DNA from: a virus
Taxonomy: Duplodnaviria; Heunggongvirae; Uroviricota; Caudoviricetes
IMG/VR virus record: IMGVR_UViG_2778261461_000001
Location: 1-21,304 of that record
Length of the DNA stretch: 21,304 nucleotides
Reading direction: 5' to 3' (one strand)
In this document: piece after piece, positions 1,175-16,480 of the stretch
How positions within the stretch are numbered: the first letter of the stretch is position 1
Layout: each line of letters opens with the position of its first letter
Notes under the pieces: model-generated
What the model was told of the DNA's origin: nothing
The model's database searches: none
Seen by the model: only the letters and a program-made list of their open reading frames with translations
Program-made: the position numbers and the translations under genes

Positions 1175-1933
1175 TTAGATGAGGAAATCATCCAGTGTTT
1201 TACCGGCTTCAAGTTGTTCGGCCAGTGCTTTAGGGGTACGCCCCTGGCCAGTCCAGGTTTTCGTTTCACCATTAACATCAGTGTATTTATATTTCGCAGG
1301 GCGCGGTTCGCGAACTTTTTTAGGTGCTCCGGACTTTGCAGAGAAAGAACTCAGTAACTCTTCAGGGTCAATTCCATCTTCAAGCATTAATTGACGCAGG
1401 GATTCAATCTTCTCCAGACGCGCTTTCAGCTCAGCTTCTTTTGAAGATTCTTCCTGACGTCGTTCTTCAATATTTGTATCAACCTGAACCTTCTGTATCT
1501 GCTGGATCGCTGCACTCTGGTCTTCCAGTTTCTTATTGACGGTCTGTGTGATTTCATTGCTGACATCCGTAATGGACGTCCTGATTTCAGCCAGGTCAGG
1601 CGCAAGCTGACCGTTATCAATCTGCGTCCACAGCTCCTGAGCCAGATGGGTTTTCCCTATCTCGCCTTTGAAAAAATCCAGATAGCCGGATGCATCATCA
1701 CTCGGCTGACCAACAGCCTCCACGAATGCCGATTTGCCAACGGTGTTCACACTGCGGATATAAAAGTAATAATCATGGCCCGGTTTGATATTGATACTGG
1801 CGGCTATCCAGTACAGCGCCGTACCAAGATAGCTGCTGCTCCCCAAGCCACACAGGAGGCTCATTATCTCCGGCCATACGCGCATCATGTTCCTGCCATT
1901 GTTTCGCGTGTGCCCAGGCATCACTACCCGCAA
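1175..1933 (-). CDS. Chimeric ORF: lambdoid host-specificity protein J internal fragment fused in frame to an H-NS/StpA-family C-terminal region (probable recombination product, possibly pseudogene)
   Basis: Residues about 35-105 ([41 protein letters not shown]...LDFFKG) match the lambda J C-terminal region; residues about 155-252 (IEERRQEES...[13 protein letters not shown]...[24 protein letters not shown]...LDDFLI) match the H-NS/StpA linker and DNA-binding domain including the TWTGQGRTP motif. The annotated start is TTG and there is no ATG near the H-NS-like part. Confidence 0.55.
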
Positions 1934-2003
1934 AAATAATGACTTCTGTTCCTTTGTGTTTTATGCCGCGTGACTGCTGTTTTACGTTCGGTGCCAGTTT
2001 CAT
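1773..2003 (-). CDS. Hypothetical small protein (76 aa); 3' end reads J-derived DNA out of frame, so likely truncated by the insert/J junction near 1831
   Basis: ATG at 2003 overlaps the upstream stop (ATGA) and is preceded by AGAGG; the C-terminal about 20 codons overlap J-homologous DNA in another frame. Confidence 0.4.
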
Positions 2004-2299
2004 TTTTTACCTCTGAATCCGTTAATCATGGTTTTCATTTTCTGGATATTTCCCCACGCTTTTTCCCTGCTGATGGGCTTACTGCGGGGTGCGGCATATA
2101 CCAGGGAAAAATCACGCCGGAACTGATAAACAGGCATCACGCAGTCATAGCTATACCCCTCACGGCGGTAAGTGATGCGCCGTTCTGCCACGCCTTTAAT
2201 CGTTACCGTGCCGCCGTATTTATCGCGGTAAATATCGCCGTTCATAAATTCAGTTCGAGCGGGGCCGCTGGCAATAAAGCCAGAATTTTTCATTTCCAT
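2000..2299 (-). CDS. Hypothetical small protein (99 aa), fourth gene of small-protein operon
   Basis: ATG with GAGGA 10 nt upstream; ATGA stop/start overlap with the downstream gene; no family recognised. Confidence 0.5.
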   Translation of the reverse strand: MEMKNSGFIASGPARTEFMNGDIYRDKYGGTVTIKGVAERRITYRREGYSYDCVMPVYQFRRDFSLVYAAPRSKPISREKAWGNIQKMKTMINGFRGKK

Positions 2300-2316
2300 A
2301 TTATTTATTCCTCGAC

Positions 2317-2538
2317 TTAACTCGACTTATTTGATAGCAGGGCACTATTTATTGCGTCATTGAGTTTTTCTGCTGATTCATCAATAAGTGACAACAGGCC
2401 ATAAGCAATATTTGCATCTTCATTGTCATTTATGCAATCAAGCCACATATTTAATATTGCTTTTGCTGAATTATTTAAAGTTAATGAACTTTCTGCACAT
2501 GCTAACAATTTAAAAAAGACTTCCCGTTCTGTATTCAT
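2317..2538 (-). CDS. Hypothetical acidic small protein (73 aa), third gene of operon
   Basis: ATG immediately follows the upstream stop at 2539-2541; GGGGGA upstream; predicted helical and acidic; no family recognised. Confidence 0.5.
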   Translation of the reverse strand: MNTEREVFFKLLACAESSLTLNNSAKAILNMWLDCINDNEDANIAYGLLSLIDESAEKLNDAINSALLSNKSS

Positions 2539-2730
2539 TTAATCCCCCACCAGCTTACTTTCTTCCTCAATCAAAAAACTAGCGACACTTCCCGAAAGAC
2601 GCGCCAGTAGGCTCGCCAGTGCGGATATATCAGCATCTGTAATTTTGTTCGGGTATACCTCAAGAAGGCGGCAAATAATTTCTGTCTGGTGCGCACGTTC
2701 AGCGGCTTCGTGTAATGTAATTTCCTGCAT
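2539..2730 (-). CDS. Hypothetical small protein (63 aa), second gene of operon
   Basis: TAATG stop/start overlap with the upstream gene; GAGGTG upstream. Confidence 0.5.
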   Translation of the reverse strand: MQEITLHEAAERAHQTEIICRLLEVYPNKITDADISALASLLARLSGSVASFLIEEESKLVGD

Positions 2731-2915
2731 TAATGCACCTCTTTTAATTCATACATTGCTGAAATAATGACTTGTGATAAGCCATATTCTGATGATTCGC
2801 TTCTCACCGCAGCAATAGCCGTCTGAACATTAACAGCCTTCACATTCTGAGCGATACCAATTGTGTGGCCTATTGGGTTAACAGCTCGGGCAAATACACG
2901 GAAGGTTTTAAGCAT
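2730..2915 (-). CDS. Hypothetical small protein (61 aa), first gene of operon
   Basis: ATG at 2915 with GGGAG 7 nt upstream; lies directly downstream of the divergent regulatory region. Confidence 0.5.
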   Translation of the reverse strand: MLKTFRVFARAVNPIGHTIGIAQNVKAVNVQTAIAAVRSESSEYGLSQVIISAMYELKEVH

Positions 2916-3194
2916 GACTCACTCCCTGGCGGATTTTTGCAGCGAATACAGCAACACAACCGGACGGGCAACGGCTACGCGCTTCGCGTTCCGTCCAGGC
3001 GGTTACGTGGATGATTTGAGATTCTCCGGCACTCAGTGCCAGAAAACGCCACACAAAGGCCGTTTGTGTGTGTACAAGGTGTGGTATATGATTTACAGCA
3101 ACCATAACGGCTCCTAGTTTACGTTGTTGGTTAGACGCCCCGTATGTGTTCCCAGCACTGCGGGGCGTTGCTCTTTGTATTTCAACAATCCTTT

Positions 3195-3275
3195 CGGTGT
3201 GTTTCATGTTATGAGCGCATGAAACACACGTCAAGGCTTTTTGTATTTCTTTTTTTGTGTATACTGAAACACACC
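3195..3275. promoter_or_regulatory. Putative operator/promoter region between the RHH regulator gene and the small-protein operon
   Basis: Inverted repeat GTGTGTTTCATG (3197-3208) - 9 bp - CATGAAACACAC (3218-3229), with a third half-site TGAAACACAC at 3265-3274 overlapping a TATACT -10-like hexamer (3260-3265) about 30 bp upstream of the RHH start. Confidence 0.4.
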
Positions 3276-3295
3276 GATGATTAGGAGTTTCAGAA

Positions 3296-3601
3296 ATGGC
3301 AACGGCTAACAAAAACGCAAAATCACAACTGACAACTGTCAGAGTCCCACTAGATGTTATGCAAGGGATGGAATCCGTTAAGCTGGACGGTGAAAGCAAT
3401 GCCGGATTTATCGTAACCGCCATGCGCGGAGAAATAGCCCGCCGCCAAGCAGAAGGCAGCGGAGAAAATCCCCTTGTGTCGTCACTGGATGCCCTGGCTA
3501 AGGTCGAACAAATCGGCATCAAAGCAGCCGAGGAGATCGGGCAACTCGTCACCGTCGCGCGTGAAGAACTCCAGCGACGCAAGGTCAAAGAGCATGAATA
3601 G
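3296..3601 (+). CDS. Putative ribbon-helix-helix (Arc/CopG-like) transcriptional regulator (101 aa)
   Basis: AGGAG 8 nt upstream of the ATG; N-terminus (TTVRVPLDVMQGMESV...AGFIVTAMRGEIARRQ) has a beta-strand then two helices typical of RHH; sits beside the palindromic operator. Confidence 0.55.
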   Translation: MATANKNAKSQLTTVRVPLDVMQGMESVKLDGESNAGFIVTAMRGEIARRQAEGSGENPLVSSLDALAKVEQIGIKAAEEIGQLVTVAREELQRRKVKEHE

Positions 3602-3658
3602 CCAATATCAGCGCCATAGTTTGAGGAACGCAGGCGCATTGCTTTACAGGACAGCACC

Positions 3659-3838
3659 ATGAGCGACACAGAATCAACCAAAACACCATCACCAACTCGT
3701 AAGAGACGACGCAAAAATATAGCGCATGAACATGAATCAGAAAGATTCGCACCTTGTTCGTTTGCTCTTGAGAAATTCCTTAAAGAGCACAGGAAAAAGC
3801 TCTCGTTGCAAACCTTGGAACGAACCAAATCTGACTGA
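3659..3838 (+). CDS. Hypothetical basic small protein (59 aa); below the ORF-track length cutoff
   Basis: ATG at 3659 with AGGA 7 nt upstream, 57 bp after the RHH gene and followed by a terminator; translation MSDTESTKTPSPTRKRRRKNIAHEHESERFAPCSFALEKFLKEHRKKLSLQTLERTKSD. Confidence 0.3.
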   Translation: MSDTESTKTPSPTRKRRRKNIAHEHESERFAPCSFALEKFLKEHRKKLSLQTLERTKSD

Positions 3839-3904
3839 TCACATTGCCCACCAGCCGCAAATGTGGCATTGTTGGTGATGCTTTTGTTTTCCCTTGTTCC
3901 CACT

Positions 3905-3936
3905 GGCGACCCTTTTGCGGTCGCCTTTGTTTTGTC
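3905..3936 (+). terminator. Rho-independent terminator for the plus-strand RHH/59-aa unit
   Basis: GGCGACC-cttttgc-GGTCGCC hairpin followed by TTTGTTTTGT. Confidence 0.5.
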
Positions 3937-4513
3937 ACTGAATGCGGTTACCAAAGTAAAACTCAGGCTGATATTCACGTATCAGCGTTTTTTCTTCTTC
4001 CTCCAGCTCACGCTTTTTGCGCTTACATGCCTGTAGCTCCCTCCCCTTCTCGCTGGCACTTATTTGATATTGCTCTTTACGGCGGGAAAAATCCTGTAAT
4101 GCACCCCACGGGATACCATAAGTCCCCGTTTTTCTGATACCTGGTATCACATTTCTGAATACCCAGTTACTGAAACGATGAGCAAATGTGCCAGGCGTCG
4201 TTGCTTTGCGGCTGCGGGCTATTAGTTTGTAGAAACCTGACTCAGAGATAATTCTCATATTCTGATTTCCTCCTGGGGTGTAAGTTAAATTTACTCCCTT
4301 TTCATCATCATCAAGCATCTGCAACGCCGTACGCGAATTGGTTAGTTCCAGCGCAGCACAAACATCTTTTGCAACAAACCACGGATCGCCGTTCAGATAC
4401 ACCACACGAACGTTCACACTATCAAAGCGCAGAACGACGAGATCACGAATATCGCAGAATTTTTTCACTGGACGAGCGTACCCCTTGCCCGTCACGGCAA
4501 TATTTTTATTCAT
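3935..4513 (-). CDS. Bro-N domain protein (phage antirepressor-like), 192 aa
   Basis: N-terminal region (FDSVNVRVVYLNGDPWFVAKDVCAALEL) is a recognisable Bro-N/antirepressor-type motif; C-terminus is charged and coiled-coil-like. Confidence 0.7.
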   Translation of the reverse strand: MNKNIAVTGKGYARPVKKFCDIRDLVVLRFDSVNVRVVYLNGDPWFVAKDVCAALELTNSRTALQMLDDDEKGVNLTYTPGGNQNMRIISESGFYKLIARSRKATTPGTFAHRFSNWVFRNVIPGIRKTGTYGIPWGALQDFSRRKEQYQISASEKGRELQACKRKKRELEEEEKTLIREYQPEFYFGNRIQ

Positions 4514-4531
4514 CGCGTTTTTACCTTATAG

Positions 4532-4556
4532 ACAAAAAACCCCTCGTGATGAGGGG
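4532..4556 (-). terminator. Hairpin with T-run after alpA (terminator or attenuator)
   Basis: CCCCTC-gtgat-GAGGGG followed on the minus strand by TTTTTTGT, 14 bp after the alpA stop and about 20 bp before the Bro-N start. Confidence 0.4.
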
Positions 4557-4569
4557 CATTATTTACTGG

Positions 4570-4827
4570 TTATTGCTGTTTTGTTTTTCCAGGTTTCCAT
4601 CCAGGATGCCACTCACCACGGATCCATGCCTGAACCTCTGAAAGTCGATACCCTGCAGCACGTTCACCGATCTTGATACGTCGCGGGAATTTACCTGCCT
4701 GCTCCATTTTCCAGCGTGTTGAGTTTGCCAGCGTGGTAAGTGCTATGCACTCTTTTTCACGAATGAACCGATCAATGTCCTTCATTGTGCGCAAATCGTT
4801 TTCATCAACAAGAGAATAAATTGCCAT
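4570..4827 (-). CDS. alpA: AlpA-family transcriptional regulator / excisionase-like protein (85 aa)
   Basis: Sequence (...GKFPRRIKIGERAAGYRLSEVQAWIRGEW...) matches the AlpA/Vis-type HTH family; start is 1 nt after the integrase stop, GAGGTGG upstream. Confidence 0.8.
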   Translation of the reverse strand: MAIYSLVDENDLRTMKDIDRFIREKECIALTTLANSTRWKMEQAGKFPRRIKIGERAAGYRLSEVQAWIRGEWHPGWKPGKTKQQ

Positions 4828-4828
4828 A

Positions 4829-6070
4829 TCACACCACCTCTTTATTAAGCTCGATAACGTTGTTGTTAAATCCTGCTATCGTATTAAGGTAATTAACCCA
4901 CATATTAAGCACCTCAAGTTTTTTCTTTATATGCCTGCTTTTATTGTAAACACCAGCAACCCCTTTCACTTTATGACCTAAAAGAAGTTCGACAATATAA
5001 GGATCCGCCCCCATATCATTAAGCGTAGTGGAAAATGTGCGCCTGAAATCATGTATGCACCACAAGCCATTAGTATCATGACCAAGACGCCTGCATATTC
5101 TGTTTGCAGCCCCTGTTATTGTCGCCCTTTGCAAAGCACAACCGACAACATAACCGCGATTTTTTGTTTCTGCGTAAAGATTAACGATCCATTGTTTTAT
5201 TCCGTCAGGAACAGGCCTTACTATAGCCTCCTTGTTTTTGCTGTGCTCTTTTGGGACTGTCCATACCCAGTTTTTTAAATCCCATTCGTCCCAGGTGGAT
5301 AGCCTCGCCTCCTGCTGTCGGCAACCAAACACCAGGCAGATAACCATTATTCTTCGGTTATATATTGATGACAGAGTTAGCAAATTATTACCGTAAGCAT
5401 AAGACCATACATCAGCGGTTTCATTGATATTAAGAACGCGATCCCTTATACCGGATGAGCGCCCGACATAACTTACGTTAATATCTCCAAAGGGATCGCA
5501 CGCGATGTATTGCCTGACGCGACAAAAACGCAACGCCTGTTTGATATCAAGAAAAATTGCACCAGACATAACAGGCGCATTTTTTTTGATCCTGTCAAAG
5601 ACGGTAAGCCATGTGTGTAATTTGCACTGTTCTATAGCCATATCACCGATATAGGGGAAGATATGCTTTTCAAATCGTTTTATTAAATATTCATGCTCTT
5701 TTCTGGCTGTTGTGGCGTGATTGTCGTACCAGTAAAACAGCGCATCCCTTACGGTCACTGGTTGCATAGTTTTTTCGGCAGCAAGTTTTATTTGCCTGCG
5801 GGGGTCCAGATTTTCAGCCAGCCATTCACGGCACTGATCACGCATGCGCCTGGCCGTTGCAAGAGACATGTCAGGATAGCGACCAAGTGTAAGCCATACC
5901 GGAGGGGATTCCCTGCCACCAAGACGATAGTAAAAAACAAAGCTGATCCCCCCAACCATGCTTACACGCACAGACAACCCGCGCCCATCCGCTATTGTTT
6001 TTTGTTTGTCCTGCCGTTTTCCGACAAGACTCTTTAACAGTTTGTCACTGAGTTTGTTTTCAATAGCCAT
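4829..6070 (-). CDS. int: Tyrosine recombinase (P4/CP4-57-type integrase with N-terminal arm-binding domain), 413 aa
   Basis: N-terminal DUF4102-like arm-binding region (GRGLSVRV...FYYRLGGRE...LTLGRYPDMSLATAR) and C-terminal catalytic motifs (HDFRRT, LLGHK, GVYNKSRH); GAGGG upstream of the ATG. Confidence 0.85.
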   Translation of the reverse strand: MAIENKLSDKLLKSLVGKRQDKQKTIADGRGLSVRVSMVGGISFVFYYRLGGRESPPVWLTLGRYPDMSLATARRMRDQCREWLAENLDPRRQIKLAAEKTMQPVTVRDALFYWYDNHATTARKEHEYLIKRFEKHIFPYIGDMAIEQCKLHTWLTVFDRIKKNAPVMSGAIFLDIKQALRFCRVRQYIACDPFGDINVSYVGRSSGIRDRVLNINETADVWSYAYGNNLLTLSSIYNRRIMVICLVFGCRQQEARLSTWDEWDLKNWVWTVPKEHSKNKEAIVRPVPDGIKQWIVNLYAETKNRGYVVGCALQRATITGAANRICRRLGHDTNGLWCIHDFRRTFSTTLNDMGADPYIVELLLGHKVKGVAGVYNKSRHIKKKLEVLNMWVNYLNTIAGFNNNVIELNKEVV

Positions 6071-6086
6071 TAAAAGCCCTCAAGAG

Positions 6087-6142
6087 ATTTGCAATACACA
6101 CCCATCCCGATCGCCAATTTGCAATACACATTGCAATACACA
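6087..6142. repeat. Three direct repeats of TTGCAATACACA upstream of the integrase start (candidate arm-type or regulator binding sites)
   Basis: Copies at 6089-6100, 6119-6130 and 6131-6142, 20-70 bp upstream of int. Confidence 0.5.
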
Positions 6143-6270
6143 AAACCGCGAAAAACTGGAAGGGTGATGAACGGTCATCAAAAGCATGGAAAACGACATT
6201 CCAGACGCAGCAAGGGTTTCAGTGGAGTTGGCGAACGATGCGGGCAACTACGGTGAGATGATAGACATAA

Positions 6271-7303
<1,033 letters not shown>

Positions 7304-16264: not shown

Positions 16265-16480
<216 letters not shown>

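Follow-up and report, generated by a model that had tools for sequence, protein, structure and literature searches.

A block of five small open reading frames (ORFs) on the minus strand of a 21,304-nucleotide stretch of viral DNA (positions 1 to 21,304 of the Caudoviricetes record IMGVR_UViG_2778261461_000001; hereafter the window) is the stretch nearest the promoter in the early/replication operon of a phage satellite, a helper-embedded phage-inducible chromosomal island (HE-PICI) that sits inside the portal gene of a lambdoid prophage. The block studied spans positions 1773-2915, and its control region and neighbours were read up to position 7100. Our preferred reading, to which we assign a probability of roughly 0.6, is that the five small genes form the front of an early operon that a satellite of lambdoid phages keeps under a repressor and that, together with the replicase, they give phage-triggered arrest or death. 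In intact copies, one promoter would serve an Icd-like gene, ORF1, ORF2, ORF3, a DUF4222 gene, a 584-aa primase, a single-stranded DNA-binding protein (SSB) and captured head genes, with the first six genes translationally coupled and the whole operon silent under a YlcI-like repressor until a phage signal lifts repression. The small products would be non-enzymatic satellite early proteins: the Icd-like protein may arrest the host, possibly through a block of division, the ORF3-type protein and DUF4222 would form a conserved core ahead of the replicase, and ORF1 and ORF2 would be exchangeable accessory factors that bind other proteins. Acting with the replicase, the block would combine satellite replication with phage-triggered growth arrest or cell death, a scheme that fits a published report on ECOR61 discussed below. 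We take the identity of the element, its gene families, their conservation and selection, the operator architecture and the truncation of the window copy as established.

The gene layout is compact. ORF1 (2730-2915, 61 aa, 186 nt), ORF2 (2539-2730, 63 aa, 192 nt), ORF3 (2317-2538, 73 aa), ORF4 (2000-2299, 99 aa) and ORF5 (1773-2003, 76 aa) follow one another on the minus strand, and the sizes and coordinates given in a first-pass annotation of this DNA, made from the letters only, were reproduced. The overlapping or abutting junctions it had placed at 2730, 2538-2541 and 2000-2003 are all there: ORF1 and ORF2 meet in a TAATG at 2730 with a 1-nt overlap, the TAA of ORF2 abuts the ATG of ORF3 at 2541-2536 with a 0-nt overlap, and the ORF4 stop and the ORF5 start share an ATGA at 2003-2000 with a 4-nt overlap, while ORF3 and ORF4 are separated by a 17-nt spacer. 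Each ORF has, as also claimed, its own Shine-Dalgarno sequence, seen as a purine-rich stretch 5-10 nt on the 5' side. No promoter or terminator above background was found inside the operon or flanking individual ORFs. The first-pass annotation had the operon begin at 2915 with five genes; this has to be amended, for an Icd-like gene (2908-3105, minus strand, 65 aa; NCBIfam NF033153, E 1e-17, 63.7 bits against a cut-off of 25) sits between ORF1 and the promoter region and overlaps the start of ORF1 by 8 nt (ATGCTTAA). The Icd-like gene is the true first gene of a six-gene operon. The family takes its name from Icd of phage P1.

Two further observations concern the Icd-like gene. A frame of 356 aa (2908-3978, minus strand) is in frame with it and runs antisense across the entire ylcI-like gene described below; its upstream part resembles regions that PGAP labels 'Icd-like, incomplete' or hypothetical in other PICIs. 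Translation of this frame from the mapped promoter probably does not occur, but read-through from the alpA-bro region could yield a longer Icd-like form from it. At locus L103 (4458-4823), a long Icd-like protein of 121 aa looks like two Icd-like domains duplicated in tandem, and at several loci two or three separate Icd-like genes follow one another.

The neighbourhood upstream of the operon identifies the element. Beyond the control region lie, all on the operon strand, a gene for a Bro-N domain protein (3935-4513; Pfam PF02498, E 5e-20), which represents the Bro zone, a gene for an AlpA-family regulator (4570-4827; Pfam PF05930, E 5e-14) and the satellite tyrosine integrase gene (4829-6070; assigned from annotation and from the Pfam domains of an identical gene). 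At 148 bp beyond the integrase gene lies an N-terminal fragment of the portal gene of the helper prophage (6219-7100, minus strand, 293 aa, identical to a Phage_portal_2 product). The window is 100% identical to Escherichia coli C1 over 1471-6200, and over 1828-6200 it shows the same 100% identity to strain EC93 and to many others. The EC93 copy is complete: past DUF4222 come the 584-aa primase, a small ORF, SSB, the major capsid and decoration proteins, an AlpA-like helix-turn-helix protein and a small terminase subunit (Nu1-type terS), and the two halves of a lambdoid portal gene flank it. The published description of HE-PICIs recognizes four zones, for integration, Bro, replication and late functions (Tommasini, Mageeney and Williams 2023, PMC10111431). 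Integrase-AlpA, the Bro zone and the insertion in the portal gene are present in the window; the replication and late zones are not, the primase ending after codon 59. We identify the element as an HE-PICI because its integrase, AlpA, Bro-N, YlcI-like, Icd-like, DUF4222 and primase families, the intact copies of 100% identity and the published order of zones all point the same way.

The element is thus already known: the HE-PICI class is published, the exact sequence is in RefSeq and the small genes are catalogued. The block had been singled out in the first-pass annotation as the best candidate in the window for an undescribed function, a description that does not fit a locus whose exact sequence RefSeq already annotates. 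Reviews of satellites place accessory genes of unknown role between the regulation and primase modules (PMC10085698). A side observation on this part of the element is that the slot between alpA and the Icd-like operon, which holds the Bro-N and YlcI-like genes in the window, carries other cargo in near-identical satellites (L010/L011, 4411-5321; L095, 2913-4480; L098/L102, 2952-4261), where the insert encodes a putative AbiC together with a HicB-like product, a protein of the DUF2971 family, or a protein of 449 aa that belongs to no family. The slot behaves like an accessory/defence hotspot.

The last gene of the block is a remnant of the replicase. ORF5 had been counted as a fifth small protein; it is a pseudogene fragment of 59 primase codons (2003-1827) continued by 17 out-of-frame codons of gene J DNA. 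Its first 59 residues are identical to residues 1-59 of the 584-aa satellite primase of locus L002, which has D5_N and DUF5906 domains; ORF5 matches the PHROG families phrog_864/2850 (DNA primase), and RefSeq/PGAP labels it 'DNA primase family protein, incomplete'. The fusion partner is a fragment of the lambdoid tail-tip gene J (1471-1840, minus strand). That the last gene is cut by the J junction was correctly seen at first pass: the match to J extends up to 1840 and the match to the satellite begins at 1828, which leaves a 13-bp overlap (1828-1840) at the deletion junction. The deletion took away the primase from codon 60 onwards, the rest of the satellite, and the head and tail genes of the helper up to the middle of J. 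Among 5,426 complete E. coli genomes, this primase/J junction occurs in one, strain C1. The Icd-like gene, ORF1-4, the promoter and the operators are intact and 100% identical to those of intact elements. The window copy is a satellite remnant that cannot replicate, and the unit it retains, being without a replicase, is most likely inert.

Outside the window the block is widespread. The first-pass annotation had proposed to look for conservation of the block in other genomes, and of the 5,426 complete E. coli genomes, 130 contain at least 80% of the 1.1-kb block and 1,613 contain parts of it. The general order of Icd-like gene, variable small genes, ORF3-type gene, DUF4222 and replicase is repeated in about 1,600 E. 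coli genomes. For ORF2, the identical protein has entries in 13,680 blocks of an assembly collection, and it occurs in thousands of E. coli assemblies. To compare the arrangement of the genes, 79 related loci from IMG/VR and annotated genomes were classified by tblastn with reference proteins; the best 80 of 192 loci were kept for this sample, which is biased to close relatives. The Icd-like gene is first in all 79 loci, and in all 79 a DUF4222 gene lies directly 5' of a replicase gene, which encodes a primase (70 loci), a RepA (6) or a DUF927 protein (3). An ORF3-type gene adjoins DUF4222 on its 5' side at 70 loci. The full set of Icd-like gene, ORF1, ORF2 and ORF3 is found at 47 loci; elsewhere the positions of ORF1 and ORF2 are filled by unrelated small genes or by extra Icd-like copies. 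A profile scan of contigs for DUF4222 returned two loci, in Shigella and E. albertii; it used narrow peptide patterns and one genome per species, so it carries little weight on distribution.

The three kinds of replicase, a D5_N/DUF5906 primase, a DUF927 protein and an AAA_25 RepA helicase (for example L002, 7422-9176; L003, 2372-4504; L004, 3104-4504), have unrelated catalytic domains, yet they share a Pfam-less N-terminal domain of 125-163 aa with 63-80% identity that follows directly after DUF4222; positions 1827-2003 of the window encode the first 59 aa of it. What is conserved as a module thus extends from the Icd-like gene into the first third of the replicase, and the recombination boundary falls within the replicase gene.

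The only lead to function comes from E. coli ECOR61 (Silas et al., bioRxiv 10.1101/2023.04.06.535777): expression of the phage accessory gene orf24 kills cells of this strain, and the Tn5 insertions that suppress the killing lie in an Icd-like gene and in two hypothetical ones. According to the supplementary table of that preprint the three suppressor genes measure 366, 186 and 192 nt and overlap by 8 and 1 nt, and six linked genes, the primase among them, were all needed to reconstitute the effect (10.1101/2023.04.06.535777). Exactly the same lengths and overlaps are seen for the Icd-like gene, ORF1 and ORF2 of locus L103, an HE-PICI whose ORF1, ORF2, ORF3 and DUF4222 are 93, 100, 100 and 96% identical to those of the window. 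The ECOR61 screen probably hit the same block. The superinfection-exclusion type of role that the first-pass annotation had listed among the options gains from this comparison in that a locus of the same geometry has a reported superinfection-exclusion/cell-death phenotype, a likeness of gene geometry only.

The same data feed the main rival of our reading, in which DUF4222, and perhaps the ORF3-type protein, would be replication accessory factors that bind to the N-terminal domain common to the replicases or to the origin of the satellite and aid the loading or regulation of the primase-helicase, the toxicity being that of runaway replication. The stop codon of DUF4222 overlaps the start of the replicase gene in the ATGA, DUF4222 keeps its place directly before the replicase at every one of the 79 loci whatever the catalytic type, the replicase types have the N-terminal domain of 63-80% identity in common, and DUF4222 is basic (isoelectric point, pI, 10.1), all of which this rival would explain. 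It also accommodates the need for the primase in the ECOR61 phenotype, and uncontrolled PICI replication has been reported to lower viability (PMC6092414). Against it, a second branch of DUF4222, of 79 aa and only 22% identical to the satellite form, has its gene beside xis, at a distance from the replication genes, in the genomes of 128 lambdoid phages. Examples of this branch are found in the early-left int-xis region of the CFT073 helper prophage (L093, 10191-10430, C_RS07095) and in phage ev017, and lambdoid phages are the helpers of these satellites. ORF1 and ORF2, moreover, are swapped for unrelated genes in similar elements, unlike core replication factors, and the searches brought up nothing that resembles known loaders or origin-binding proteins in sequence or structure. 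We consider a replication-accessory role possible but rather unlikely as the explanation of the block.

The preferred reading of a satellite early operon gains definition from the protein families, and the claim that none of the five proteins has a recognisable family had to be withdrawn. ORF4 matches Pfam DUF4222 (PF13973) over positions 2-52 of the 53 in the profile (82 bits, gathering cut-off 27; E 2e-23), also matches phrog_285 and is 70-77% identical to DUF4222 proteins of diverged PICIs, ORF5 is the N-terminus of a primase, and ORF1 (E 4e-45), ORF2 and ORF3 match phrog_3672, phrog_1478 and phrog_2196, respectively, which are PHROG families without an assigned function. For ORF1-3, the family and structure searches gave no Pfam, NCBIfam, PADLOC or PDB relatives. 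Searches of the PDB with the sequences of ORF1-4, the Icd-like protein and the YlcI-like protein, and with family profiles of DUF4222 and ORF3, returned nothing below E 0.03. Homologues of ORF1-3 are restricted to Escherichia, Shigella and E. albertii: those of ORF1 are 65-97% identical to it, and the 42 found for ORF2, at 73-98% identity, are all from Escherichia/Shigella. An exhaustive phmmer search with ORF3 against 1.84 billion representatives recovered only its own 50% cluster, plus spurious long repetitive proteins. Compared with the ORF3-type genes of other PICIs, the window ORF3 is only 24-35% identical, but the relationship is significant (hhalign probability 95%, E 4e-8); it is a divergent representative of a family whose place directly 5' of DUF4222 is conserved. 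Its GC content of 32%, against 41-52% in its neighbours in the same operon, suggests a recent exchange at that cassette position. We also considered ORF1 as a diverged Icd-like paralogue, as the two have a similar pattern of strands and helices, and rejected this on an hhalign probability of 0.2%.

Predicted structures add a little to this picture. The AlphaFold2 model of ORF2, built from 31 sequences, has a mean predicted local distance difference test score (pLDDT) of 80 and is a confidently predicted two-helix hairpin (helices 6-25 and 32-61), for which Foldseek gave no match at E <=0.001 in the PDB or BFVD; it is a generic helical hairpin. For DUF4222, the AlphaFold2 model from a single sequence has four strands and a C-terminal helix at an unreliable pLDDT of 50, and ORF4 is predicted to consist of a strand-rich core and a basic C-terminal helix. 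The charges of the proteins are split, ORF2 and ORF3 being acidic (pI 4.7 and 4.2) and ORF1, the Icd-like protein and DUF4222 basic (pI 9.4, 9.7 and 10.1).

The proposal that the block is a phage early/moron cassette of host-takeover or anti-defence proteins (anti-restriction, anti-CRISPR and the like) that benefit a phage is best weighed against these properties. In its favour, the products are small and evolve fast, their genes are translationally coupled, ORF2 and ORF3 share the acidic, helical character of many anti-defence proteins, the GC content of ORF3 is atypically low, and the middle of the cassette varies between elements. These are satellite genes, however, and tblastn searches of 50,697 phage genomes with ORF3 and the window DUF4222 protein gave no match. 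The ORFs also lie inside a replication operon and have no promoter or terminator of their own. The PADLOC defence models, which cover defence systems and not anti-defence, gave zero matches for the locus, and the PDB searches found no similarity of the small ORFs to characterised anti-defence proteins. We rejected the phage moron reading on the absence of a match in phage genomes, the absence of a flanking promoter or terminator, and the coupling into the replicase gene, and regard it as improbable; an anti-defence role for the variable middle genes is possible, and nothing supports it directly. What stands of the original description as a phage cassette is a repressor-gated early operon of a mobile element that encodes small proteins of unknown function; what has changed is its owner, as the operon belongs to the replication zone of a satellite and is not a phage cassette.

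Selection was estimated from the ratio of nonsynonymous to synonymous substitution rates (dN/dS) against diverged copies, which is 0.25-0.30 for ORF1 and ORF2 (0.25 for ORF1 against the L005 copy) and 0.26-0.43 for DUF4222. A value of 0.93 for ORF1 against the near-identical L003 copy comes from 4 substitutions only and is uninformative. Because the ratios lie at 0.25-0.43, ORF1, ORF2 and DUF4222 are real genes under purifying selection. This bears on the view that the ORFs of the window copy are decaying, functionless remnants that have not yet mutated, which could call on the cut primase, on the deletion of the rest of the satellite and of most of the helper prophage, and on the need for all six genes, including the primase, in the ECOR61 preprint. 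The five upstream genes, the promoter and the operators are nevertheless intact and 100% identical to those of intact elements, and the families in general are under purifying selection. We judge decay very improbable as an account of these ORFs, and it concerns the window copy only, not the identity of the genes.

Returning to the early-operon reading, the control region is where a repressor would act. The core GGTGTGTTTCA occurs three times within 80 bp (3196-3206, 3220-3230 and 3265-3275), whereas 0.5 matches would be expected in the whole window. The first two copies belong to a palindrome with arms GTGTGTTTCATG and CATGAAACACAC at 3196-3208 and 3218-3230. A promoter-like site, TTGACG-17-TAACAT (3234-3206, minus strand; -35 at 3234-3229 and -10 at 3211-3206), overlaps the palindrome; the operator copies bracket the promoter, and the third copy directly follows a TATACT hexamer that lies a short way 5' of the ylcI-like gene. 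A palindromic operator in the region that drives the operon, claimed at first pass, is thus present at 3196-3230, with the copy at 3265-3275 in addition. The divergent gene (3296-3601, plus strand, 101 aa) belongs to the YlcI/YnfO family (NF041551, E 2e-17, 63 bits against a cut-off of 30; phrog_6522). It had been called a divergent ribbon-helix-helix (RHH) regulator: the divergent orientation holds, and for the RHH fold there is a sub-threshold match to Pfam PSK_trans_fac (E 0.022) as a hint, with no PDB relative.

Comparison of 40 loci with a ylcI-like gene revealed a constant scaffold of the control region, which reads Shine-Dalgarno sequence, site, GTATACAC, A-rich stretch, CTTGACG, site, 12-14 nt, site, GC hairpin, Shine-Dalgarno sequence and icd start codon. 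Within this scaffold the three operator cores change jointly from locus to locus, forming about 10 classes, each with its own YlcI N-terminal sequence. The pairs include QLTTVRVPLD with GTGTGTTTCA (the type of the window), KKLEARVPHA with GTGGCTGACA (the type of L005), QSVTARIAHE with GTGTAAGACA and QTVAARVPHE with GTGTTCAACA, and the co-variation is seen in loci that include L005, L049, L052, L058, L061, L069, L071-L073, L078, L081-L083 and L087. The operator cores do not track the Icd leader, as the same YlcI/operator type is found with different leaders and vice versa. Because a concerted change at three sites is the pattern of a cognate repressor and operator, we infer that the YlcI-like protein is the candidate element-specific master repressor of the operon. 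In the literature searched, we came across no paper in which YlcI/YnfO is given a role in satellites, nor one that describes such a repressor in Gram-negative PICIs. The 5' leader of the operon also contains a GC-rich stem-loop (3135-3168, minus strand, from folding) with no T-run after it. Other elements preserve the stem although their sequences and loops differ, and the fold of the whole leader has a z-score of only -1.6; the stem-loop could be a processing, stability or antitermination signal.

Several points weigh against the reading of a repressor-gated early operon that brings about arrest. The YlcI/operator co-variation could partly reflect linkage, the sites being less than 100 bp from the ylcI start. 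Many related PICIs have no ylcI-like gene, so the protein is not a universal regulator. In the model PICI EcCICFT073, AlpA is an activator by experiment and the existence of a repressor was left open (PMC6092414). The link to ECOR61 was drawn from gene sizes, overlaps and annotation (contig QOYT01000045.1), and because upstream Tn5 insertions are polar, ORF1 and ORF2 are not proven effectors. The roles of ORF1-3 and DUF4222 are proposed without a PDB relative by sequence or profile, from a generic fold for ORF2 and an unusable model for DUF4222, and we infer every one of these biochemical roles. Finally, the phage branch of DUF4222 beside xis, away from any replicase, weakens a replication-specific role for that family.

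A bolder version, which we hold as a tentative and rather doubtful extension, would give a large group of Gram-negative PICIs their missing master repressor in the YlcI-like protein, with a tripartite operator of at least 10 immunity-like specificities; the operon would then be a phage-sensing unit in which a phage accessory protein acts as the anti-repressor, whereupon the small proteins and the replicase jointly arrest or kill the cell, and ORF1-3 would be effectors or adaptors, not described before, of an abortive infection mediated by the satellite. The YlcI/operator co-variation is the most worthwhile lead of this work, and it bears on the open question of whether Gram-negative PICIs have a repressor. 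The small proteins are very abundant and sit where the satellite decides to replicate. Should it be true that they mediate phage-triggered growth arrest or a manipulation of the helper, this would matter for the way in which satellites sense phages and protect bacterial populations.

Two other parts of the window deserve mention. Its left end is a mosaic that contains an IS10 end with RNA-OUT (518-587) and, at 633-1470, an 838-bp segment with 100% identity to a plasmid-borne hns-family gene region. The hns region is joined to the J fragment at 1470/1471, which creates an in-frame J/H-NS fusion ORF (1175-1933, 252 aa). Neither this junction nor the one at about 632 occurs in any of the 5,426 complete E. 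coli genomes, and the mosaic either arose by a rearrangement particular to the strain or is a chimera, whether of assembly or of construction. A match to Rfam naRNA4, a REP-derived nucleoid-associated RNA, lies at 16328-16398, just above the gathering score, in the chromosomal part and unrelated to the operon.

Among known systems, the ECOR61 locus has the same 186-nt and 192-nt genes with the same overlaps as the window, a likeness by gene geometry and annotation only; its Icd-like gene is of the 121-aa tandem form, whereas that of the window is of the 65-aa form, and only the ECOR61 locus has an intact primase. The DUF4222 protein of lambdoid phages shares the Pfam domain and the small size of the satellite form, which differs in being of 99 aa, in its basic C-terminal helix and in its coupling to the replicase, while the phage form belongs to an int-xis accessory region. 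The Stl/Str region of the Staphylococcus aureus pathogenicity islands (SaPIs), which are Gram-positive PICIs, likewise has a small divergent regulator gene opposite the excision/replication operon with operators in the intergenic region, and its logic would couple induction to an anti-repressor of the helper phage. The proteins are unrelated, however, and in our element the integrase and alpA genes lie on the operon strand, not on the repressor strand, and repression is a proposal from co-variation.

The left operon of P4 (kil/eta, CI RNA, cII, epsilon, orf151 and the alpha primase) likewise places small early genes before a primase-helicase, P4 is an enterobacterial satellite of the AlpA/Vis type, and Icd-like genes are common in P4-like elements. 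Unlike P4, the element described here has no sid, psu, delta or epsilon, and its helper is lambdoid where that of P4 is P2-like. An Rfam search for the C4/isrK immunity RNA found none even at E <=1, nor any other Rfam family in 1700-4900. We ruled out a P4-like satellite on the lambda-type capsid, decoration and Nu1-type terS genes of the intact relatives and on the lack of C4/isrK. The closest comparison is with the HE-PICIs (Eco567.11capE) and the Gram-negative PICIs (EcCICFT073) of the literature (PMC10111431, PMC6092414). Those two papers class the small genes between Bro and the primase merely as hypothetical or accessory and do not describe the divergent YlcI-like gene and the operators. 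The co-oriented integration, Bro, replication and late zones are shared with both groups, and as in HE-PICIs the insertion lies inside a lambdoid late gene, here that of the portal, with primase-SSB and captured capsid genes in the intact copies.

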